Shown: positions 159-18,030 of the stretch, one piece after another
Numbering within the stretch: the first letter of the stretch is position 1
Layout of the letters: every line of letters starts with the position of its first letter
DNA from: Schmidtea polychroa
Lineage: Eukaryota
Direction of reading: 5' to 3'
NCBI GenBank assembly: GCA_044892525.1
Contig: CM097885.1
Location: 32,056,001 to 32,116,000 of the forward strand
Length of the DNA: 60,000 bases
The notes under the pieces: generated by a model
Told to the model about the DNA's origin: nothing
The model's input: the letters and a program-made list of their open reading frames with translations, nothing else
Databases searched by the model: none
Translations under genes and position numbers: made by a program

Positions 159-569
159 TTAAAATATTTGTGAAAGTCTAGCAGACATAATTTTCCAAAT
201 AGGAGAATATACATCATTATTATCAACTTTATATCCCTGGATTGCAATTGTTATATACCAATTTTCATTTTCTTTGAAAGCGATTTCATCAAAGGAATCA
301 TAAAATCTTGCATATTTATTGTTGAACCATGCATGTTGATTACACGATAGATTCGAATCTATCCGTTTAAAAACATCATCAATAGTTTTGACATCAATCA
401 TTGAAAGCGTGCCGGATAAGAATTCAAATTTAGTTGGAATTAGCTTGACTGGTGCAACCAATTTCATATTGATTTCTTCTTTCAAAAAATACATTTTGTA
501 GTTGTGGAACATTTGAACTGGTTGTACCATTTCTTTAGGTTTTTCGGTGCTTGAAATTTTCTTGGTCAT
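159..569 (-). CDS. Polinton hypothetical protein, 136 aa; possibly OB-fold ssDNA-binding protein
   Basis: ATG-initiated ORF in the element; beta-strand-rich C-terminus (WYITIAIQGYKV...PIWKI). Function is a guess. Confidence 0.55.
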   Translation of the reverse strand: MTKKISSTEKPKEMVQPVQMFHNYKMYFLKEEINMKLVAPVKLIPTKFEFLSGTLSMIDVKTIDDVFKRIDSNLSCNQHAWFNNKYARFYDSFDEIAFKENENWYITIAIQGYKVDNNDVYSPIWKIMSARLSQIF

Positions 570-1404: not shown

Positions 1405-1842
1405 TTAGAAATCGACCAATGAAATTATCTCATTTCGAACATTGTCAACAAATTCTCTATACTCCAAATTTCTCAACCCCAACATGACAACCTTTCCACT
1501 AGCAAACACGTTGACACATATAGGGTTATATTTTAATAGTCTTAGTGCCGGAAACAATTCCGGTTCAAACATACAATCACATTTTTTCGACATGTTATAT
1601 AGATTGATACTATGTCCCATATCCATAGTAACGGTAATTGATTGGATTTTAATATTATTTATTCGATATTGTAATTTATTAATATCCAAAGGTTTCTTAC
1701 ATCCCATGATTCTGCATTTACCAGTCTTGAAAAATATTATCGGATATTTCCCACTTCTATCGATAATTTGCTGGGGTTTCCCTGGTGGGAACCTCATATT
1801 CGATACATCAAAATTTCCTCGATAATTTATATTTGCTAACAT
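1405..1842 (-). CDS. TATA-box-binding protein (TBP)-like protein, 145 aa
   Basis: Second repeat IKIQSI...FEPELFPAL...VNVFASGKVVMLG matches TBP FKIQNM...YEPELFPGL...LIFVSGKVVLTG; first repeat keeps IIFFKTGKCRIMG. Confidence 0.85.
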   Translation of the reverse strand: MLANINYRGNFDVSNMRFPPGKPQQIIDRSGKYPIIFFKTGKCRIMGCKKPLDINKLQYRINNIKIQSITVTMDMGHSINLYNMSKKCDCMFEPELFPALRLLKYNPICVNVFASGKVVMLGLRNLEYREFVDNVRNEIISLVDF

Positions 1843-1941
1843 TATTAAATCATTTATGAAAATTAGTCTTTATATACAAATTGAGCACGAGTTCATTAAA
1901 TCATCGAATATAAACAAATACACATTTATAAAATATTTGAA

Positions 1942-2568
1942 ATGGAATTAAGAAATGATGCTGTATACCAAATCGTTGGTCCGAGTGGTAGTGGAAAAAC
2001 ATTATTTGTTTGTAAATTACTAAAATCCAATTTATTCAAATCAAAATTCAACAGGATTTATTGGCATAGGGGTGCTGATGAAGAACATGGATTAACTCAA
2101 TCAAGTTTCTGTAAATTAAAAAACATGAAAATAGTAAAGGGATTCGATAAAAACTGGTCCAGCCGATTAAAGAAAGGCGATGTCATTATTATCGATGATT
2201 TGTATCAAGAAGCTAATAAAGAAAAAGATTTTAATAATTTATTTACAAAGATTAGCAGACATGTCGGTGTAACAGTTATTTTCATAACTCAAAATCTATT
2301 TCATCAAGGTGGGGCACATCGAACACGTAATTTAAATGTACAATATTTAGTCATTTTCAAGAATCCTAGAGATGCAACAGTGATTGATTTTCTTGCACGT
2401 CAAGCATACCCTAACAATCGTAATTTTCTTATCAGTGCATTTCAAGATGCTACAAAAATACCTCATGGATATATATTTCTTGATTTCACACAACAATGTC
2501 CCGATGATTTACGTGTAAAAACAGATATTTTCAACCCAAAAGGTGCCATGGTTTATAAACAAAGTTGA
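1942..2568 (+). CDS. DNA packaging ATPase (A32/FtsK-HerA type)
   Basis: Walker A GPSGSGKT, Walker B IIIDD, SRH...FITQNLF, FKNPRD motifs. Confidence 0.93.
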   Translation: MELRNDAVYQIVGPSGSGKTLFVCKLLKSNLFKSKFNRIYWHRGADEEHGLTQSSFCKLKNMKIVKGFDKNWSSRLKKGDVIIIDDLYQEANKEKDFNNLFTKISRHVGVTVIFITQNLFHQGGAHRTRNLNVQYLVIFKNPRDATVIDFLARQAYPNNRNFLISAFQDATKIPHGYIFLDFTQQCPDDLRVKTDIFNPKGAMVYKQS

Positions 2569-2586
2569 AAACCTCTATGAATAATA

Positions 2587-3120
2587 ATGTTTCTAAAAGC
2601 AAGGGTGAAAAATATTAGGAAATTAAGAAAAGGTATTAGAAAGACTATTAAAGTTCCAAAGGTTCCACCAACAACTAGTTATACACCATCTAAAAAACTT
2701 GTAACTGAAAATTTCTCTGCAATGAATCTTATTTCGAAAAATCCTAAACCTAAACGTAAAACCCGTAAAACCCGTAAAACCGGTAAAAAAGTAGTTAAAA
2801 ATCATCGCAGTTTTCCATTTTTTAATGCATTGTTAAAGGCTCCGAGTATGAAAAGAATGAATATATTGCAATCATTCCCAAATTTTGTTGTCGATGATTT
2901 ACTCAATATTATACTTAAAGTAGTCAAAGGCAAAATTAAAATCAGTAAATCAAAAAAGCATTTATTGAGCAAACATAGGAAACCTTTATTATCTTTAGTA
3001 AATAATAAAAATCGTAAGCAAATGAGGAAAATTATATATAAACAACAAGGTGGATTTATTGGTGCCTTGATACCTCTGGCATTATCATTATTAGGTGGAG
3101 TTGTAGGAAATCAATCATAA
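2587..3120 (+). CDS. Basic virion core protein precursor with adenovirus pX-like C-terminus
   Basis: Very K/R-rich; ends QQGGFIGALIPLAL, similar to adenoviral pX GGFLPALIP and an adenain-type cleavage site. Confidence 0.7.
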   Translation: MFLKARVKNIRKLRKGIRKTIKVPKVPPTTSYTPSKKLVTENFSAMNLISKNPKPKRKTRKTRKTGKKVVKNHRSFPFFNALLKAPSMKRMNILQSFPNFVVDDLLNIILKVVKGKIKISKSKKHLLSKHRKPLLSLVNNKNRKQMRKIIYKQQGGFIGALIPLALSLLGGVVGNQS

Positions 3121-3123
3121 ACA

Positions 3124-3351
3124 ATGGGTGCTAATCCTTCATTGCCCGACATTAAATTTAATTTTAAATCTTCTTGTTGTAATGGAGAAGATTTGGACGA
3201 ACCCAGAAGACGAAGCCGGTTTCGGTGGAGTGGCAAAATTAAACAAAAGAGTTCCGAATTCGAAAAAAGAAACCCAGAAGTGGTTATCAGATCAGCTTGC
3301 GTACAGTTTGAACAAACCAATGCGGAAAAGATTTCCAACAAGAGCGTATAA
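3124..3351 (+). CDS. Small putative N-myristoylated protein overlapping the integrase start in another frame
   Basis: ATG 3 nt after upstream stop, good context (ACAATGG), MGANPS motif, SSCC pair. Confidence 0.5.
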   Translation: MGANPSLPDIKFNFKSSCCNGEDLDEPRRRSRFRWSGKIKQKSSEFEKRNPEVVIRSACVQFEQTNAEKISNKSV

Positions 3352-3569
3352 AACATTTGGTATTGACGATTTATGGCAAATGGATTTGATGGAGATGATA
3401 CCATATTCGAAAATTAACAATGGGAATAAATATATTTTAACATGTATTAATGTATACAGCAGGTTTGCACGAGCAATACCAGTCAAGGCAAAATCTGCAG
3501 AAGAAATGTCCAAGGCAATTAATATTTTATTTAAAGATGGACATCCTAATAATTTGCAAACAGATTTAG

Positions 3570-3646
<77 letters not shown>

Positions 3647-4276
3647 TTAGGTAAAGAATTCTACAATAGCAAAGTTAAGCAAATCCTCGATAAACTGAAA
3701 ATAAATCACTACTCGGTACATTCTCAATACAAAGCTGCCCATGTTGAAAGATTTAATCGAACATTGAGAGATAGATTAAAGAAATTGTTCGTGCATCAAG
3801 GTAATAAAAAATGGGTAAATGCTTTACCGAAAATAATAACAAGTTATAATCATTCATCACATCGAGGACTGAATGGATTGAGACCGGTTGATATTACATC
3901 AAAAACACCATTATCTAAAAAATCTGTAAAAATTGCAAAACCTAAATATAAAGTCGGTGACCATGTTAGAATTAGTAAAATTAGTGCATCACCATTTATT
4001 AAAAATTTTGATACAAATTGGAGTGATGAAGTCTTTGTAATTTCAAAAATAAATACTAAACAGAATCCTGTAATGTATGTCATCAAAGACAATGATAATA
4101 ATATTGTACAGGGGAAATTTTATGAGCAGGAATTACAAGTCATTCCTCCCCCAAAAGTATTTAGAATTCAAAAAATATTGAAAACTAAAAAGGTCGGTAA
4201 GGATAAACAATACTATATCAAATGGCACGGTTATCAAAACCCGTCATGGATATCGTCAAAAGACCTAGTAAAATGA
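3182..4276 (+). CDS. Retroviral-type DDE integrase with C-terminal chromodomain; intron 3570-3650
   Basis: WQMDL, QTDLGKEF (restored on splicing), VERFNRTL, YYIKWHGY...SWI; ATG at 3182. Confidence 0.93.
3570..3650 (+). other. 81-nt GT-AG intron made of (ATT)n microsatellite
   Basis: TTAG|GTATT(ATT)n TTAG|GTAAA; removal deletes the poly-Ile tract and restores DLGKEF. Confidence 0.85.
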
Positions 4277-5277
4277 ATTTTTATATTATTTTACCTAGCA
4301 ATAGCTGTCCACTTATTCATCCAGATAATAAAGCCAGCAAATTCAGGGTCAATCTTCAAAATCCGATATATTTGGATAATAGCTGGGAAGTTGCTCTGTT
4401 GGATTTTACATTTGTATACCAAGCCTTTCCATTTTATAGTAAGGCTAAAATTGGATACAAAAAGAATGAGTGGCAGGATAGATTATTGTCTATGATCATT
4501 GATAATGCAGATGATGAAGTTCGGTTGTCTAACTCAACTGATCCAGCTGTGAAAATGTATATTAACCATTCATATATAGTAGTTGAATGTAAACATTATC
4601 CTTTTACTGTAAAATTTGATAGTTTGGAAATGGCAAAACGATTGGAATTAAAAACCCAAAGTCATAAAGTTCTTTCCGATAAATTCACTATGCTACGACC
4701 GGGATATTCCAAAACTGTACAGCGATTTGAACCAATTTTATTTACAGTTTCATATCCGGGTATAACGTCTGGTACATTTGAGTTCAAAGATAATTTATAC
4801 ATTTCGAAATTGGATGAATTACAGACATATTTAAAACAAAGTGGTTTATTTAAATCATTGGAAATATCAGACAGATTCAAATTCAGTTTGAATCCCGAAT
4901 TTACTGAAATTACTTTTGATGCAAATCTAATAAAAACATTAGGATTATCAAAAGCAACATATGCTCAAGATGATCAAGGTACCCTAGCTCCGAAAATAAT
5001 TAAACTTCACCAACAAATGTTCATCTATAGTAATATTGTTGATCCTGTAATTGTTGGCGATTCTTTGGTCCCACTCCTGAAATCTGTTTGGATTGAAAAA
5101 TATGAACATGATGAAGTAGTCAATATAAATATCGATAATCCCATGTATTTACCTGTGTCAACCTCATGTATAAACAATATAGAAATAAATATACGTGATG
5201 ATTCTGGTAAATTAATCGCATTTCCAAAAGATTCAAAAACTCATTTAACATTACATTTTCGTAAAGTAGATGGCTAA
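4273..5277 (+). CDS. Minor capsid protein (penton-like)
   Basis: MNFYIILPSNS...DNKASKFRVNL...WEVAL start and MFIYSNIV...VGDSLVPLL...IRDDSG...LTLHFRK end; ATGA overlap with integrase stop. Confidence 0.85.
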   Translation: MNFYIILPSNSCPLIHPDNKASKFRVNLQNPIYLDNSWEVALLDFTFVYQAFPFYSKAKIGYKKNEWQDRLLSMIIDNADDEVRLSNSTDPAVKMYINHSYIVVECKHYPFTVKFDSLEMAKRLELKTQSHKVLSDKFTMLRPGYSKTVQRFEPILFTVSYPGITSGTFEFKDNLYISKLDELQTYLKQSGLFKSLEISDRFKFSLNPEFTEITFDANLIKTLGLSKATYAQDDQGTLAPKIIKLHQQMFIYSNIVDPVIVGDSLVPLLKSVWIEKYEHDEVVNINIDNPMYLPVSTSCINNIEINIRDDSGKLIAFPKDSKTHLTLHFRKVDG

Positions 5278-5635
5278 TTCGGATATTATAAGTATGTATA
5301 GTGGTAGCCAATCTGGCGGTGAATTACCATATTTTATTGGTAAACAGTACGGATCAGGATGGTTGAGAACAATTGGTAGATTTGCACTTCCTATTCTTAA
5401 ACGTATTGGTAGTTTTGGTATGAAAACTGCTAAAGATGTTATTATGAATGAACAGAAAATATTACCATCTCTAAAATCAAATGCTTTAGCAGAATTAGGG
5501 AAAGTTTTACCCGGGGTTGCAGGTATGTTTCAAAAACCAGCTCCAGCTCCAGCTCATGCTCCAAAACGTAAAAGACATGGAATATCACGTATAAACAAAC
5601 GAATGAAAGGCCATGGAACTATATTTGCAAAATGA
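5270..5635 (+). CDS. Small structural protein, pVI-like (cleavage motif plus amphipathic helix)
   Basis: QYGSG followed by WLRTIGRFALPILKRIG; basic C-terminus; lies between the capsid genes. Confidence 0.7.
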   Translation: MANSDIISMYSGSQSGGELPYFIGKQYGSGWLRTIGRFALPILKRIGSFGMKTAKDVIMNEQKILPSLKSNALAELGKVLPGVAGMFQKPAPAPAHAPKRKRHGISRINKRMKGHGTIFAK

Positions 5636-6854
5636 TTTGTGGTAAATCTGAATTATGTATATTTGATAGACCGTCGCCCCAGGCTGTAATAGAATTTGGG
5701 GCGTTTGAGGAAGTTTTTCCAATGAATTCAATTACTGATAGTAGAAATGATATAGAGTTTTATATTAATGGTTCGCAAACTGAATATTTAGATTTGAACG
5801 ATACTTTATTGACTGTTCAGATCAAGGTTATAGATAAAGATAAAAAAGCTTTGGGTGATGCTGCTGATGCAATACCGAACAATTTCATGTTTCATACTCT
5901 TTTTAAAGATGCTGTGTTGGGATTTAATAATATCAAGATTGAAGGTGGTAATAATACATTCATTCACAAGGCTTTGATAGAAACTATTTTAAATTACAAT
6001 TCCGATACTAAAAATACATGTCTTACTCCAATGGGATATGCTGCAACCGACGATGAAAGAAAAAAGTGGATTAAAGGCTCAAAAACATTCACCATGTGTT
6101 CATCGTTACAACTCGATTTTATGGATCAACCGAAATATTTGCTTCCAGGAGTTAATGTCCACATTCGATTGAAAAGATCCGATTCTGCACTAACTCTTAC
6201 TAGTGCTACAGGTGCACCAATATGTCAATTAGTTGATGCAAAATTATTGGTGAGAAGAGTTCGAGTAGACCCCTCAGTATTAGCTGGTCATCAATTGGGT
6301 CTTAATTCAAAACATGCAATTTATCCATTAAAACAAAGGAAATTGTACAATTTGCTATTGCTAAAGGTGCTTCATCATTCTATAAAGAACAAATATTTGG
6401 TGACAGAAGAATGCCTAATTTTATTCTGATAACATTTCAAAGTGAAGCACAATATAATGGATCATATACTGCGTCCAGCTCAATTTTCAAAAACTTTGGT
6501 GTTACATCATTGACTTTGTCGAAAAATACTGATTATAGAGAAACATATATTCAAGATTTCGAGAATGACAATTACTGCGCGACATATATGCAGAGTATTG
6601 TTAGAAATCTCGGTTATTTAGATAAAAATTTGAATTGCGGAATAACACTAGAAGAATTTAAAAGCAAATACCCATTTTTTACATTTGTTTTAGCCCCTGA
6701 TTTTGATTTAAATCAAAGTCAATTACCTCAAAATGGAAATTTACGACTGGATATAAAGTTTGCAAAAGCTATTACTGAACCAGTACATGTTATAATATAT
6801 GGAGTATTTGAAAATGAAGTTCAAATTACTGCAAATAGAACAGTGTTGGTATAA
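5632..6854 (+). CDS. Major capsid protein (double jelly-roll) split by one frameshift at A-run 6330-6333
   Basis: KSELCIF, IEFYI...YLDLNDT, QPKYLLPGV, GNLRLDIKF...VIIYG motifs; adding one A joins the two ORFs (YPLKTKEIVQFAI...RRMPNF). Confidence 0.88.
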
Positions 6855-7266
6855 ATGTATACAGAAACACAAAAAGTTATCATGGAGTAAGTTGTTTTTT
6901 ATACTCTGGATTTATTTAAATAGTTCTGTTCAGGTCAATAAAATCGGAAAACAGATATTGGGAAATGAATTTGTTGGAGTTTTTCCTCTTGATAAAATTC
7001 CATATTTGAGCAATAATCAAGCAATAATCGTCAATACTCAATCGTCTCATCTTGGTGGAGAACATTGGATAGCTATATATGTGAAACCTGGTAATATATT
7101 CGTGTTCGATCCTATGGGTTTCTATTACCCAGCTTTGTTGATATCAAAACTACAAACAATGGGAAAACCTATTGTGTATAATAAAACTATGTTTCAAAAT
7201 CCTTTGACCCAAACATGCGGTCAACATTGTTTAGCTTGGTTATTGTACAAAAAATTTGATGTTTAA
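6855..7266 (+). CDS. Adenain-like cysteine protease; predicted 37-nt intron 6887-6923
   Basis: Catalytic GEHW, FDPMG, Q...CGQHC; ATGGA|GTAAGT...AAATAG|T gives MDSVQVNKI in frame. Confidence 0.88.
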
Positions 7267-9903: not shown

Positions 9904-12900
9904 ATGACAAAATATTACCGAAAAAAGTTTAATTCGGTCAACTTTTTTATATGCCCCAAATGTGTAACGAGCGAAAAAATAAAATATAGGGAATTTTTTA
10001 ATAAACATCATAATCACTTAGGGCAATTTTCGATATCAAAAAATGTTTTATTTAAAAAAATAAATAAAAAATTAAATAAAAAAAAAAATTAGAAAATAAT
10101 TTACAAAAAAACTTACAAAAAAATTTAGAAAATAATTTACAAAAAAATTTGCAAAAAAATATTAAAAAAAATAAAAAAAATATTATTAAAGATTCAAATA
10201 TTAAAAAAGATGCTATTAAAAAAGATACTATAAATATTATTAAAAAAGATATTATAAATATTAAAAAAGATTCTATTAAAAGACCTGCTGGTTTAATTAA
10301 AAATTGCATTCCTAATAAATTATCGCGACCTGAAGTGATAGTCATCAGCAAAGATGAATGTGTAGCTTCAACATCGTTTACACACCAAGCACCCATTACA
10401 CAACACGCACCCATTACACAACAAGAAGTGATAGTCATCAATGATGAATGTGTAGCTTCAACGTCTTTGAACATATGCCAAATAGGCGGCTCTTTGTTTG
10501 AACCTATGGTAGAATCCGATTTGAACGGATCGCGTAAAACTTTAAGATTTGATATTAGAAATCAAAACTTAGTAAAAATAGCCCTAACATCAAAAATTGA
10601 AGATAGATTAATACAGGAAATAGAAAAGATGGGCAATGTAAAAATTCAATTCACAATTTTAATTAAATTTGAAAAAGATGGGGAGATCCGGGATAATTAT
10701 TTTTCGAACAATGCTCAAGTTTTTACATCAAACTTTATAAACGAGGGGGTGAGCAAATTAAATGAAAAGATTGAGCAATTCACCTATTTAGGAAGCGGGT
10801 GGCGAGTAATGAATATTTTAGAAATAGATTTTATTTTAACGAAATACGCACCCGTCAGTAGATTATCCGGACATAGCTATATAAAAACCCCATCAGCATT
10901 AAAATTAAAACATGCAATAATTAATGTAAAAAACAACGACCATAAGTGCTTCTTGTATAGCATTCTTGCACTTTTAAAAAGAGAAGAAATAGGTCGTAAT
11001 CACCAAAGAGCCGCCAAATATATAGAATTTTTACCTCTATTAAATTATGACGAAGACACTGATTGCCCGATGAGGCTATGCAACATTCCCAAATTTGAAA
11101 GAAAAAATAGAGATTTAAACTTGAGCATAAACGTTCTGTCTTATAATCCAGCCAGTTCTGATTTAGATATTTCTGAGGATTATGTAGCTCACCACCCTCA
11201 TCTTAATATAGTACATCGCTCCAAGGTTATAGACGGTATACCAATTTATTTATTACTTTTGAGTAATAAAGATAAATATCATTATACAGCCGTGACAGAC
11301 TTGGACAAATTAATGAATTGTCATGAAAATGAAAATGTAAATGTTCAAATAAGGTGTAACTGGTGCCCACATTGTTTAAATGGCTTTAGATATAAGAATG
11401 CTTTCGATCAGCATGTTGCTCTATGCTGTAAAAATCAGACTGGCACAACTTTGTATACACTTCCTAAAAATAAAGATTTATTATTCACAGATTACGCAAA
11501 AACAGTTACACCTCCCTTCGTAATTTATGCCGATTTTGAATCGGTTTTACCAGAACATGAAACATATCATCAAATACATTTACCCATATCAGCAGGTCTT
11601 TTATTAATTAATAATTATACACACACTAAATTTTATTATTATTTTTTTGGACCTAATTGTATTTTGGATTTTTTGAGGAAAGTGGAGGAAATTGCTGTCA
11701 CAATTGTCCTGCCATATTATGATCTTGAAGGTCGTAAAGGTATGTCTACTTTGTCATTTGCTCAGGAGCGTGCCTTTCGATCTTCCACTATTTGTTATTT
11801 GTGTAAAAAATCTATTATTAATCCTGTGAGAGATCATTGCCATTTTACAGGTAGATATGTCGGAGCGGCATGTAGGAAATGCAATGTCTCTCGCAGGATT
11901 AATAAATTGTTACCTGTTGTCTTTCATAATTTACGAGGCTATGACCTCCACCATATTTTAAAACATGGTCTCAGTGATTTTCCCCTTTGGGAACTTAATA
12001 TTATACCTACCTCTACAGAAAAATTTATATCTTTAATTGCATATATTAACAAATTGCCTGTTCGTTTTATTGACAGCATGCAATTTGTTAATTGTTCTTT
12101 AGCAAAAGCTGTGAAAACCTTAACTACTTTTCCTTTGACTTCGTCTGTCTTTCAAGGGTCGATGATTCACTCTAAAGGTATCTTTCCATATAATTTCGCC
12201 ACTTCTTTAGATGTTCTTGAATCGACTTTAGAATTACCTCCTATTTGGTCTGATGTTACGGAAGATCAGTACGCTGAGGCTCAACTAATTTGGAATCAGC
12301 ATAACTGTAATAATTTGTTAGATTATATGTTAATCTACCTAAAATTGGACGTATACCTCCTCGCAGATTATTTTCAGCAATTCCGCGGTAAGGCAATTGC
12401 TTACAATGGTCTGGATCCTCTTAATTTCTACGGGATTCCCGGTATGTCATGGGCCTCAGCGCTTATGACATTAACGGAACCCATAGAACTTCTGCAGGAC
12501 ATGGAAATGTATAATTTCTATGAGGGAGGTATCCGGGGTGGGTTAACATTTGTTAACAAACATTACACGGCTACTTCAGATGATACAGAATTATTGTACA
12601 TTGATATAAATAATCTGTATGGTTGGGCTCTTAGCCAAAATCTTCCGTATGGTGATTTTTCTTGGGTGAATAATAACTTGAATGATGTTTTACTTGAATG
12701 TATGAACACGGATATTGATAACCTTCCATATGGGTATACTATGGAGGTCGATATCGATATTCCGGAATGTGTGCATGACTTTTTGAATGATTTTCCGCTT
12801 GCGCCGGAAAAGTTGTGCCCGCCTAATTCAAAAGTTGAGAAGCTTATGCTTACGCATTGGCCAAAGAGGAACTATGTTCTTCATTGGAGGCTTCTCAAAT

Positions 12901-13898
12901 TGTATATAGAATTAGGTGCGGTTGTTGTAAATATTCATAGGTGTATAAAGTTTAAACAAGGACCTATCTTTAAATCCTACATAGACACCAACACCACTTT
13001 ACGATCTCAGTCTACTAGTGAGATATATAGGGACTTGTTTAAATTGTATAATAACTCTCTTTACGGTAAATCGGTTGAAAATTTGAAAAAAAGAATGAAT
13101 TTGAGGTTGTGTAATTCATCCGAAAAGATGATAGTATACTCCTCAAAGCCGACTTTCAGAAAGTCCATAAGAATCGATAACGATCTGATTGCGGCACATT
13201 TGGAAAAAGATGTGATTTGTTTAGACAGACCTAGCTACATTGGTCAAACAGTACTAGATCTATCTAAACTGCGGATGTACCAGCTCCAATATATTGATTT
13301 GGAGAAGTACAGACGCCAATATAAATGTATCATAAATATTATTGCCGGTGATACCGACAGTTTCTTTTTGGAAATAAAAAATTTAAAATTAACAACTTTA
13401 TTACCTCAGATGATCTCTGATAATTTATTGGATACGTCAAATTACGATCCAACCCACCCCTTGTATAGTAGGAACCTTGACTCGGTCATCGGGAAGTTTA
13501 AAGATGAGAGCAAGGGATTAGGGTATTCTGAATGGGTTTTCTTACGCCCTAAATGTTATAGTCTTTTAGGTAGTAAGGAAACGGTAAAAGCGAAAGGGGT
13601 TAAATTACCAGGGACATCAATAAATCACGAATCATATCTAAATTGCTTTCATTCAAATCAGGTGATTTCTGTACCGCAGACTAGAATAGGTACTAGAAAT
13701 CACCAACTTTTTACTTTTAAAAATTCGAAAATTGCCCTAAGTAATAATGATGATAAGCGCGCGTGGCTAGGAAAAAACTTAAGTTACGCATTTGGGCACT
13801 ATTTAGGAGTTGACGAATTAAGCGAATATGATGAGGAATTCGGTCCAGCTCCAAGTCCCAGTTTTGACGACAGCGAATGGGACGAAGATCAAATTTAA
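9904..13898 (+). CDS. Protein-primed family B DNA polymerase with endonuclease VII-like insert; frameshift in A11 run 10078-10088
   Basis: YADFES, DHCHFTGRYVGAACRKCN, FHNLRGYD, YIDINNLYG, KLYNNSLYGK, GDTDS, LRPKCY. The PolB frame has no early ATG and joins the 9904 ORF (CPKC...HHNH) if the A-run gains one A. Confidence 0.93.
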
Positions 13899-14465: not shown

Positions 14466-14897
14466 TTGATTTTTAATAAATCAATATGTGTTTGTCCGAA
14501 TACAGCCAAGTTGATGGATATTTTATATATTCTCGATAAACCAAAATGGTCAAAGCATCCAGGAAAAAGAATATCTCAAAGATTGGAGAATTTAGAAAAC
14601 AGTTATGAACTAACATTTGAATATATACAAAATATAAAAATTAAATTGATTGATCATATTGAGGTTTTCAATAACTCTATTACTGAAAATAAAAAGAATA
14701 TGAAGATTATTGATAAGAAGCATGATTATTTGTTAAAAAAGATTGAATTATTATTAAGAGAAATTCAAACAATCAAAGGATCAATAGAATATCTGAAAAT
14801 CAATTCAACGTTACCAATTTCTAACAATAATGCTGCGAATAGAAGTGCATCAATATTTAGTTTACCTTTGTTAATTTTACATTATTTTATTGTTTAA
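14466..14897 (+). CDS. Hypothetical coiled-coil protein with hydrophobic C-terminus; start uncertain
   Basis: 143-codon ORF with heptad pattern, followed by AATAAA. Confidence 0.45.
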   Translation: MIFNKSICVCPNTAKLMDILYILDKPKWSKHPGKRISQRLENLENSYELTFEYIQNIKIKLIDHIEVFNNSITENKKNMKIIDKKHDYLLKKIELLLREIQTIKGSIEYLKINSTLPISNNNAANRSASIFSLPLLILHYFIV

Positions 14898-15022
14898 ATA
14901 AATGTATGTTTTGTTGATTTGTTGAGCGTGACCAGTACCCTTGTGAGCATTACCCATAGGGGGACAAAATATTTTGTCGGATAGACTCAGAGTATATAGA
15001 CTCGGTGTATATAGATTAATAC

Positions 15023-15112
<90 letters not shown>

Positions 15113-15236
15113 GATATATGGCTCATTCGAAAGGTCTTGGATTGAGCTTTAAAATGAGCTATCGATTATTAATTTTCGTTGGCGGGAACTTTGAAAAAAT
15201 TAAAAATAAAATAATAATATTTTTAAAAATAATAAT

Positions 15237-15900
15237 ATGACCTTGATGAGTCATCGCGATGACTCATATGACCTTGGGAATGACCTTGGATGAGTCATGT
15301 GACCTTGAAAATGACCTTGAGTCATAGGATGACTCAGATGACCTTGAAAATGACCTTGAAAATTTTGATGAGTCATCGGATGAGTCATATGACCTTGAGA
15401 ATGACCTTGATGAGTCATAGGATGAGTCATATGACCTTGAGAATGACCTTGATGAGGCATAGGATGAGTCATATGACCTTGAAAAAAATTTTCAAGGTCA
15501 AATGAGTCATACTATGAGTCATATGACCTTGAAAATGGCCTTGATGAGTCATACTATGAGTCATGGTCTTTGTTTCAATGACCTTGATGAGTCATAGGAT
15601 GAGTCATATGACCTTGAAAATTTTTTTTCAAGGTCAAATGAGTCATACTATGAGTCATACGACCTTGAAAATGACCTTGATGAGTCATGGTCTTTGTTTA
15701 AATGACCTTGCGAAATTTTTTTGACCTTGATGAGTCATATTATGAGTCATATGACCTTGAAAATGACCTTGGTGAGTCATCGGATGAGTCATGGTCTTTG
15801 TTTAAATGACCTTGAAAAATTTTATGAGTCATAGGATGACTCATGTTCTTTGTTTCAATGACCTTGATGAGTCATATGTCTTTGTTTAAATTTGACCTTG
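15237..15900. repeat. Subterminal array of TGACCTTG and TGA(G/C)TCA motifs, likely within the Polinton TIR
   Basis: About 25 copies of each motif by manual count. Confidence 0.9.
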
Positions 15901-15995
15901 AAAAAAAAATGTACTTTTAGACTTAGAATATTTTTGAAAATCTTACCGACGGGGGGGGGGGGGGTACTGTGCCAGCGGTGCCCAATCCATCTACT

Positions 15996-18030
15996 AAGGA
16001 TATGACACTTTTCAGGGTTTATCCTAAGACCCACCTTTCCAATTTTGTCCAGCACTTCATTTAAAACTTCGTAGCGATAATTGATCGTTTCTATAAATAT
16101 CAAAATATCGTCTAGGTATACTGCCGCATATCTCGTACTCATTAATACTTTTCCCATCAGTTCCTGAAACGTACCTGGTGCCGCTGCTATTCCAAATGGC
16201 ATTCTGTTAAAACAGTATTGCCCTGATTTGGTTGAAAACGCCGTTTGTAACTTTGATTCATCTTCTAATTCTACTTGATAATATGCATTTCCAAGATCTA
16301 TCGAACTGAAATACTTTGCTGCACCCAATTTATCTAACATCTCTGCTATATTCGGCATAGGGAACGCCTGTCTGTTACTAGGTTTAATTGCCTGAAATCA
16401 AGGCATAATCTGATATCTTGCTTTTCTGTCTTCCAGGCGCATATTAATAGAGTGTTCCATGGCAAATTAAACTTTTTGATAATATTGTTTCCCATAAGTT
16501 TTTTATCGCTTCATCTATTTTACCTTCCAAGTTGACTGGTTGTCTCCAAGGTTTAATATTTAAACAGTTTCTATTTTATGCTTCACCTTTGTGTAGCCAA
16601 TATCCCATTTATCAGCCATAAAAACATTTTGATTCTTTTATATAATGTTTAGTAGTATCGAGTTATTTATCTTTAAAGTATTCTTTGTTCTTTGAAATAT
16701 GTGCTCTTGCTTCGTTTTCTTGACCTCTTCTACTGACTACTTTAATTGTATACCAAATTGTTTTTGCAACTCTATACCACCAATTACCTCTGGAGTCTTA
16801 CTATCGTAAACTTTACCCTTCGTTTCCTGCCATTTATTCCTATTTCTAATATTGTCTTACCTTTCCTTTCTAAAACACTATTATTTGCACATCTCAATGT
16901 TTTAGTTGTTGTTGTTAGTTCTACATCTTTAAGTTTTTCAATTTTGCTCCAACTCATGACATTTACTGTAGCTCCTGTATCTTCTGCTCTTGTATTCTAA
17001 TAGTTACACTTGGTCGGCTTTGCATTTTATCATAACTAATAATATCATTTTTCCATTCATCTAATGTGAGTATTTGTATTTTGTCTCTTTATCTTTCTGC
17101 AAAATCCTTTTTTATGAATCTGTTTACTTTCTTTATTACATTATTTTCCTCGTCCGTTACCTCTCTGAATCTTTCACATCTTTTTCTATAATACATGATA
17201 TTTTACTTTTATTATAATAATTAATAATTTGGGAGTCAGCATCGCTGTTTAATACACTGCCCCGACTATCTCCTTTTTTATCGGGGCTTTGATATTTGGG
17301 TATTCACTGAATTTATCTTCTATTCTTTCATTCATCACTTGGTTCGTCTATGAATGCTACGTATCTATTGTCTCCTTCTCTTGTATCCTTTCTCATTCCT
17401 CGATAACCATTCCTTGCGTCGTATCGATCGTGTTGTCTACCAAAAGTCTCATTGATTCTCCGATATCTCATTCTCTCCATATTTGTACAACAATCTGCCT
17501 CTTTATGTCCTCCCAAGCTACACCTCATACACCTTATTTTTTGACAATCTCTTCTCACATATCCCGGGGTACCACACGCATAACATTCGACTACCTTTCT
17601 ATACATCTGTGGACACTGACTTCTTATATGTCCTTGTCTTTTTGTTAATATTGAAATCTTAAATGTTAGTTTCTTTCTGATAAAAGATATTAAAAGACTA
17701 GTTACGAACTTTTGTCTCTTATCAGTACTATTTTGGAGACGCGAAAGTTTCTCTTTGCACCAGGTAAGCATACTATATTGTTGAGTCAACTTTATTGCAT
17801 ACTTTCTCTGGTACACTGAATATCACATCACTTGCTTTTTAACTTGGTCACGGAGTTCGAAGTTTGCTGAAACTTTGCATATCGTCGTATCTGTATATAT
17901 AAAACTTTTATTGTTGTTCCTTTAAAAACAATTTCGAGAGACGGGTGACGCTTGTAGCTGAAACCGTCTGGAGTCAAAGTTGAGCTGCACCAACATGTGA
18001 ATTCACATTCAATAGTTACCATTGTGTCAA
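15996..18030 (-). mobile_element. Decayed Ty3/Gypsy LTR retrotransposon (gag zinc knuckles, RT), interrupted by the Polinton
   Basis: RT motifs YFSSIDL...RMPFG...YLDDILI...NPEKC; CYACGTPGYVRRDC and CMRCSLGGHKEADC at 17328-17816. Confidence 0.88.

Follow-up and report, generated by a model that had tools for sequence, protein, structure and literature searches.

The window, the whole stretch of 60,000 nucleotides of Schmidtea polychroa DNA analysed here, opens within a Polinton of ~18.7 kb that starts ~2.74 kb before base 1, ends at 15995 and carries a TBP-like gene beside its packaging ATPase gene (Table 1). The terminal inverted repeats of the element are 99.8% identical over 642 bp of their inner part. 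Within the gene set, the ATPase and the protease score above the Pfam cut-offs and the integrase below, and the polymerase and capsid assignments are putative: we take the long ORF on the right to encode a B-family polymerase from familiar motifs in its translation, the minor capsid label is presumed from position, and the capsid labels as a whole draw on known motifs, on synteny and on a weak DJR-like match of a relative (E 0.039, below cut-off). The virion gene block is not intact in the copy in the window, where a frameshift splits the major capsid gene; an intron at this place was considered and ruled out, as relatives have a single ORF of 403-427 aa. In the integrase gene, GT..AG inserts of (ATT)n, 42-114 bp in length, lie beside the Asp of a catalytic motif in 11 own-genome copies and are absent from one other locus (L124) and from four metagenome relatives. 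The insert looks like a young microsatellite intron, and such inserts in many copies would fit transcription by nuclear Pol II, with splicing putative.

Table 1. Genes, promoter boxes and boundaries of the Polinton within the window.
Feature	Position	Strand	Remarks
TBP-like gene, 145 aa	1405..1842	-	N-lobe without helices, TFIIB stirrup E93/E95 retained, DNA face altered
Canonical TATA box TATATAAA	1869..1876	-	34 nt before TBP-like ATG; putative host-TBP (early) promoter
TATAAACA box	1909..1916	+	33 nt before ATPase ATG; putative target of the TBP-like protein
A32-like packaging ATPase	1942..2568	+	Pfam Pox_A32, E 3.6e-7
TATAAACA box	2554..2561	+	within ATPase C-terminal Tyr-Lys-Gln codons; 33 nt before basic ORF
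Basic 177-aa ORF, putative core protein	2587..3120	+	no Pfam match
TATAAACA	3037..3044	+	87 nt before small ORF overlapping integrase start
Retroviral-type integrase	3182..4276	+	Pfam rve, E 1.1e-5, below cut-off
GT..AG (ATT)n insert in integrase gene, 81 bp	3570-3650
GATAAACA variant box	4202..4209	+	44 nt before Met9 of putative minor capsid ORF
Putative minor capsid protein	4222..5277	+	no Pfam match
TATAAACA	5169..5176	+	101 nt before 121-aa ORF at 5270
TATAAACA box	5590..5597	+	42 nt before major capsid ATG
Putative major capsid gene, frameshifted	5632..6854	+	ORFs 5632-6429 and 6411-6854
Adenovirus-type protease	6799..7266	+	Pfam Peptidase_C5, E 4.6e-6; no ATAAAC box ahead
Putative B-family DNA polymerase	10506..13898	+	no Pfam polymerase match
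Right terminal inverted repeat	14471..15995		partner left of window
6-bp target duplication AAGGAT	15996-16001

The TBP-like ORF agrees in its basic features with the original prediction, which had called it intact, intronless, 145 aa long, endowed with both TBP repeats of which the first is shortened, and 99 bp distant from the ATPase gene: the reading frame is uninterrupted, the distance to the ATPase ATG is exactly 99 bp, and both repeats, including the shortening of the first, are borne out by residue spans and by an AlphaFold model. Pfam TBP (PF00352) matches residues 63-125 in the second half of the protein with E 1.6e-15 (57.1 bits against a cut-off of 22.9), and all 35 PDB sequences matched by phmmer are TBP (best E 1.8e-11). 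The AlphaFold model, for which a 95-sequence alignment served as input, has a mean pLDDT of 96.3 and superposes onto yeast TBP 66-240 over 145/145 residues (Z 13.1, rmsd 2.5 A). All Foldseek matches listed for this model at E<=0.001 are TBP, and the ESM Atlas search with the protein returned TBP clusters only. The TBP fold on which the prediction hinged is present in both the AlphaFold and the Foldseek results, and as modelled the 145-aa protein is a two-repeat saddle of the TBP family.

The reduction of this saddle is concentrated in its N-terminal lobe. Asn4 to Phe38 in the first repeat spans 34 residues (family median 37, host canonical TBP exon 47), Gly47 to Gln67 spans 20 (family median 21, host exon 33), and at the family median the two stretches of the lobe that carry helices H1 and H2 are reduced by ~10 and ~12 residues. 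Model residues 1-80 contain no helix of four or more residues, and both canonical helices are thus missing; the N-lobe helix surfaces of TBP serve TFIIA, TAF1, Brf1 and Mot1. The intercalating phenylalanines are conserved at three sites (F38 in 94/95 sequences, F97 and F113 in 95/95 each), and at the fourth, equivalent to F99, no Phe is conserved. The acidic C-terminal stirrup that contacts TFIIB is preserved at the sequence level, with E93 in 92/95 (Asp in the other 3) and E95 in 94/95.

The DNA-binding face is altered at a fixed set of positions, namely N6 (90 of 95 sequences), R44 (94), M46 (95), S68 (91), T70 (88), R101 (93), C109 (95) and N111 (95), although in a set of 90 ORFs with the distant clade included, R101 is present in 81 and C109 in 72, 15 others having Ser in place of Cys. 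In yeast numbering these changes read V71N, V122R, T124M, N159S, V161T, I194R, V203C and L205N (88-95/95) and are mostly to polar residues, the mapping having been anchored on motifs and checked against alignment end points rather than read from a printed residue table. R101, C109 and N111 correspond to I194, V203 and L205, the three altered-specificity sites of TBPm3 according to PMC1636458, and R44, M46, T70 and N111 correspond to V122, T124, V161 and L205, positions at which KSHV ORF24 also differs from TBP (PMC12529657, Table 1).

The 150 own-genome copies that were scored, drawn from 4173 first-look candidates, are all full length and free of stops; 111 of them are identical to the query, which is a recent burst and uninformative on function. 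Other own-genome types are 51-63% identical and occupy the same position in the element. Homologs outside the genome were found in 109 of 113 candidates and, by profile search, in 353 of 1301, and 112 cluster representatives of the family pass 1e-10. Among the best 80 of 182 metagenome loci, 37 contain a Polinton core gene, 13 contain only the small gene orf136, and the remaining 30 have neither and are all <=4.4 kb long. We note that orf136 (159-569, minus strand, in the window) neighbours the TBP-like gene in 21 of the 80 metagenome loci in either orientation, has no Pfam match and gives a single-sequence model with pLDDT 33.5; its C-terminus presumably resembles an OB-fold single-stranded-DNA-binding protein.

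The head-to-head arrangement with the virion genes, to which the original prediction had attached significance, recurs in just 2 of 26 ATPase-bearing relatives, the order being tandem in 23 and the TBP-like gene lying behind the block in one; it is local to families of the S. polychroa genome. Selection was compared among relatives, with dN/dS values all below 1 for the TBP-like gene (median 0.24, range 0.10-0.72, 27 non-overlapping pairs) and 0.08 for the ATPase (7 pairs). In three own-genome comparisons, ATPases that are 95-97% identical (dS 0.40-0.55) accompany TBP-like proteins that are 56-61% identical (dS 1.6-1.8 or saturated), and because near-identical ATPases travel with such strongly diverged partners, exchange of the TBP-like gene by cassette swapping is suggested. 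The putative minor capsid gene of the window (4222-5277) is ~55% identical to its counterparts in loci L125-L136, the integrases being mostly 89-97% identical, and seems to be swapped as a module in the same way. Judged by its sequence, the TBP-like gene is real, under selection and clade-wide in Polintons.

A quick maximum-likelihood tree with 77 rows, among them no TRF2 reference, unites the Polinton proteins with a group that has longer N-lobes in one clade (SH-aLRT 98), set apart from the host's six TBP-family loci. The longer-N-lobe group (P0183, P0198, P0214, P0219 and others) comprises proteins of 155-220 aa that share R44, M46 and N111. The host itself has a canonical TBP, the best matches of which fit a flatworm, and at least five divergent paralogs, together with 13 intronless TFIIB-like frames of 301-310 aa that cluster on C1 and C3. 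Grouping of the own-genome copies with the host paralogs was rejected by an AU test on 52 of the 77 rows with 5000 replicates (p 8e-8), and recent capture of a host TBP paralog was discarded on this result, within the same TRF2-free tree. The phylogenetic comparison with host TBPs called for by the original prediction returns a separate clade; no host paralog comes close to identity with the gene, which is also not restricted to one copy. Trees that place the Polinton clade beside the host paralogs or beside compact viral TBPs were left unrejected (p 0.06-0.42), and an origin from giant-virus TBPs is neither shown nor rejected by these sequences.

The 99-bp gap between the TBP-like and ATPase genes holds two opposed boxes, a canonical TATA facing the former and TATAAACA facing the latter, with TATATAAA retained in 30/30 copies examined, all of which had been selected as protein-identical. 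This division extends to the relatives: ATAAAC occurs at -60..-20 of 26/28 non-redundant ATPase starts (mean 1.5 and maximum 7 in 300 shuffles) versus 1/45 TBP-like starts, and canonical TATA precedes 26/45 TBP-like starts (shuffles: mean 9.0, maximum 16) versus 4/28 ATPase starts, which is chance level. An Inr-like TCAYT/TCATA accompanies 34/45 TBP-like and 3/28 ATPase starts. The Fisher p of 4e-11 overstates independence, as the loci are related, and in the ATPase counts the start is the Met lying furthest upstream among those no more than 22 residues from the P-loop, an internal Met in the distant clade having given 18/30. The ATPases of loci L103 and L105 lack the box.

With cruder start assignments, the box stands before 11/15 basic-protein genes (10/10 in the distant clade), 10/12 PLA2-like genes, 13/20 minor capsid and 8/19 major capsid ORFs, and is rare before the protease (1/8), the 121-aa ORF (1/8), the polymerase (1/10) and the integrase (5/26). 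Across 104 upstream windows it was found 75 times in sense and twice in antisense, and is thus strand-specific; position 1 of the 75 sense boxes is T in 51, C in 20 and G in 4. The copy of the box that falls inside the ATPase C-terminus is mirrored in codon choice, with TAT AAA at 18/19 Tyr-Lys sites against an expected 0.47 (p 1e-5), and ATPase GC content varies from 29 to 52% among the elements that share the ATAAAC box. CATAAAC is more frequent in the distant clade, whose TBP-like proteins are distinct at positions 43, 109 and 121; co-variation between position 1 of the box (T or C) and residues of the protein was set aside as confounded by kinship.

A second Polinton family, abundant in the same genome, has no TBP match with three profiles in two copies bounded by terminal inverted repeats, and in these two copies no box precedes any ORF (14/14 and 11/11, together 25/25, a third, rearranged site being excluded from the count). 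This control is one distant lineage with a polymerase 27% identical, and its own strategy may differ; all box-positive loci were selected via the TBP-like gene, such that the co-occurrence of gene and box covers few lineages. Scans of IMG/VR with the ATPase, with ATPase and capsid alignments and with the longer TBP-like group found no TBP-less Polinton relative, and the one viral match from another search belongs to a large DNA virus whose TBP is full length. In the TBP-less family (L144-L146, L190-L197) genes start directly behind a T-rich run and (T/A)AAA-ATG, an arrangement that we take to resemble poxvirus-type late promoters, and this family may follow a helper-dependent or cytoplasmic strategy.

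We propose, with a probability of roughly 0.63, that the gene, transcribed early by the host, specifies a pared-down TBP peculiar to Polintons, which recognises (T/C)ATAAAC and directs Pol II initiation at the virion genes. Host TBP/TFIID would first transcribe the TBP-like gene from its ordinary TATA box. The resulting protein, as alignment and model show, keeps the saddle, three of the four intercalating phenylalanines and the acidic stirrup, lacks both N-lobe helices and has a changed DNA face; it would then bind (T/C)ATAAAC(A/G) 30-50 nt ahead of the ATPase, basic-protein, capsid and PLA2-like genes. The retained stirrup would dock host TFIIB and hence Pol II, and the lost N-lobe surfaces would shed regulators such as TFIIA, TAF1, Brf1 and Mot1. 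The proposed box has C at position 7, and the protein would prefer TATAAACA over TATAAAAG; a TATA-like box of this kind is reported to be disfavoured by host TBP. PMC1636458 assigns recognition of the 3' half of the box to the N-proximal lobe of TBP and reports counter-selection of C at box positions 6-8 by TBPm3. A single viral protein would in this way drive a programme of two steps, early and late, comparable to the herpesvirus viral TBP with its TATT boxes.

The late transcription factor envisaged in the original prediction gains real if indirect support from the promoter box, which is a mark of packaging and capsid genes but is found neither ahead of the TBP-like gene nor in the TBP-less family; its supposed element-specificity falls away, the gene being clade-wide with a Polinton context in 37/80 metagenome loci. 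Some observations run counter to a switch of this kind: the box does not precede every virion gene (protease 1/8, 121-aa ORF 1/8, major capsid 8/19), its 5' half is mostly canonical even though the C-lobe that reads this half is also changed, and TBP-like proteins are down to 56-61% identity between elements whose ATPases are still 95-97% identical. The more ambitious form of the proposal, in which an autonomous early/late cascade operates across a widespread clade of animal Polintons by means of a single 145-aa viral TBP that reads TATAAAC, recruits host TFIIB and Pol II and has shed its regulator surfaces, is tentative and in our estimate falls a little short of an even chance.

The box might instead be read by a host factor, be it an extra TBP paralog, a Forkhead protein or, with low affinity, host TBP itself, with the viral protein acting as a decoy that ties up TFIIB or damps host transcription. 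ATAAACA fits the Forkhead consensus RYAAAYA, and TBP-family loci number at least six in the host, where TFIIB-like copies are numerous as well; the PDB title of 1qn3 describes a plant TBP on a C(-25) TATA variant, and conservation of the stirrup alongside loss of one intercalating Phe would suit a decoy. We nevertheless regard this as unlikely, as the box is strand-specific, lies at a fixed distance and is common to elements with ATPase GC from 29 to 52%, a decoy gives no reason for fixed R44, M46, R101 and N111 on the DNA face, and a Forkhead reader sits poorly with a GTAAAC variant in 3/104 windows and a final A missing from 13/75 boxes. It is more improbable still that the box-bound protein represses or times genes in integrated copies, or bends DNA for replication or packaging. 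Such a role would accord with the missing N-lobe surfaces for co-activators, and with no viral TFIIB-like or Pol II-binding partner having been recognised among the 18 neighbour-family proteins scanned; against it, one box per gene at a TATA-like spacing, in the place of a canonical TATA (4/28 ATPase starts), and the conserved TFIIB stirrup are together more easily reconciled with an initiator than with a repressor or a packaging signal. That the gene is a captured and decaying host TBP paralog, a functionless passenger, is hardly credible with dN/dS well below 1, hundreds of relatives and one clade apart from the host paralogs (AU p 8e-8), and is refuted by the tree, the dN/dS values and the AU test.

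Set beside known TBPs, the proposed initiator shares with cellular TBP and TRF (PF00352) the two-repeat saddle, the equivalents of F116, F190, F207, E186 and E188 and, in most sequences, P191; it differs in being ~24-27% identical by structural alignment, in an N-lobe more than 20 residues shorter that lacks both helices, in polar residues at several hydrophobic DNA-contact positions and in forming a separate clade. Giant viruses often bring their own polymerase and TFIIB, and no such set was recognised in the Polinton neighbour families. The TBP-like proteins of these Nucleocytoviricota are likewise virus-encoded TBP folds (best viral-library Foldseek E 2e-8), although identity across the best 30 matches is 7-20% and their lengths run from 186 to 608 aa.

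With the viral TBPs of beta- and gammaherpesviruses, KSHV ORF24 and its homologs, the Polinton protein has in common the TBP fold and a more polar DNA face, and the two systems share a variant TATA box before structural genes, (T/C)ATAAAC here and TATT there (PMC12529657). According to that paper, ORF24 is a 752-aa multidomain protein that acts in a six-protein complex, binds Pol II directly, has polar residues at V122, T124 and V161, Ser or Gly at L205 and four phenylalanines, and lacks the TFIIB glutamates. The Polinton protein, in contrast, is a bare 145-aa saddle that retains the glutamates and has no conserved first Phe, and the box associated with it, unlike TATT, is changed at position 7. 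On this comparison, it would work like the herpesvirus-type viral TBP late system without being a member of it, and the likeness to ORF24, which lies outside our tree, is best read as convergence.

The element otherwise resembles the Polintons, Mavericks and adintoviruses described in PMC8502044, with terminal inverted repeats, a 6-bp duplication and polymerase, integrase, ATPase, protease and capsid genes. In that paper (Starrett et al. 2021), TBP is labelled for a related virus in the legend of Fig. 5; an analysis of the gene, its range, its anatomy or a promoter box was not found in the available text, and the supplement contains neither TBP nor TATA as a whole word. Neither term was found in the main texts of the further Polinton papers searched, nor was TATAAAC as a term in the literature covered, which leaves subscription papers, Repbase and bioRxiv supplements outside. 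Within this literature, the prior mention in print is a figure-legend label only, and earlier annotation elsewhere could exist. What appears to be new is a TBP carried throughout a Polinton clade together with a promoter box that matches it; among late-gene systems based on a viral TBP this would be a new version, of putative function.

If the more ambitious form of the proposal is right, a single protein would act as the late-transcription switch, in a system more compact than those of herpesviruses and giant viruses and separate from them in origin. Two open questions in the field are whether integrated animal Polintons are true viruses that complete a productive cycle of their own and what turns on their capsid genes; a defined factor with a defined 7-base box makes the matter testable. 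The protein would also be a natural altered-specificity minimal TBP, with changes at sites where the engineered TBPm3 and the herpesvirus mimic also have theirs, and could reveal the TBP surfaces that Pol II initiation needs, and the box could serve to label late genes in unannotated Polintons.

Three further small genes were observed in the element. A 75-aa ORF (3124-3351, plus strand) that begins MGxxxS overlaps the integrase start in another frame, has homologs in relatives and is possibly a myristoylated virion protein. A gene with a hydrophobic N-terminus lies within the terminal inverted repeat (14514-14897 in the window, 7931-8431 of L112 for the left copy), and its left copy has CCAAT and a canonical TATA upstream. 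Just inside the left repeat, a 103-aa ORF (L112 8537-8848, plus strand) contains a BH1-like stretch, which we take to be reminiscent of Bcl-2 proteins.
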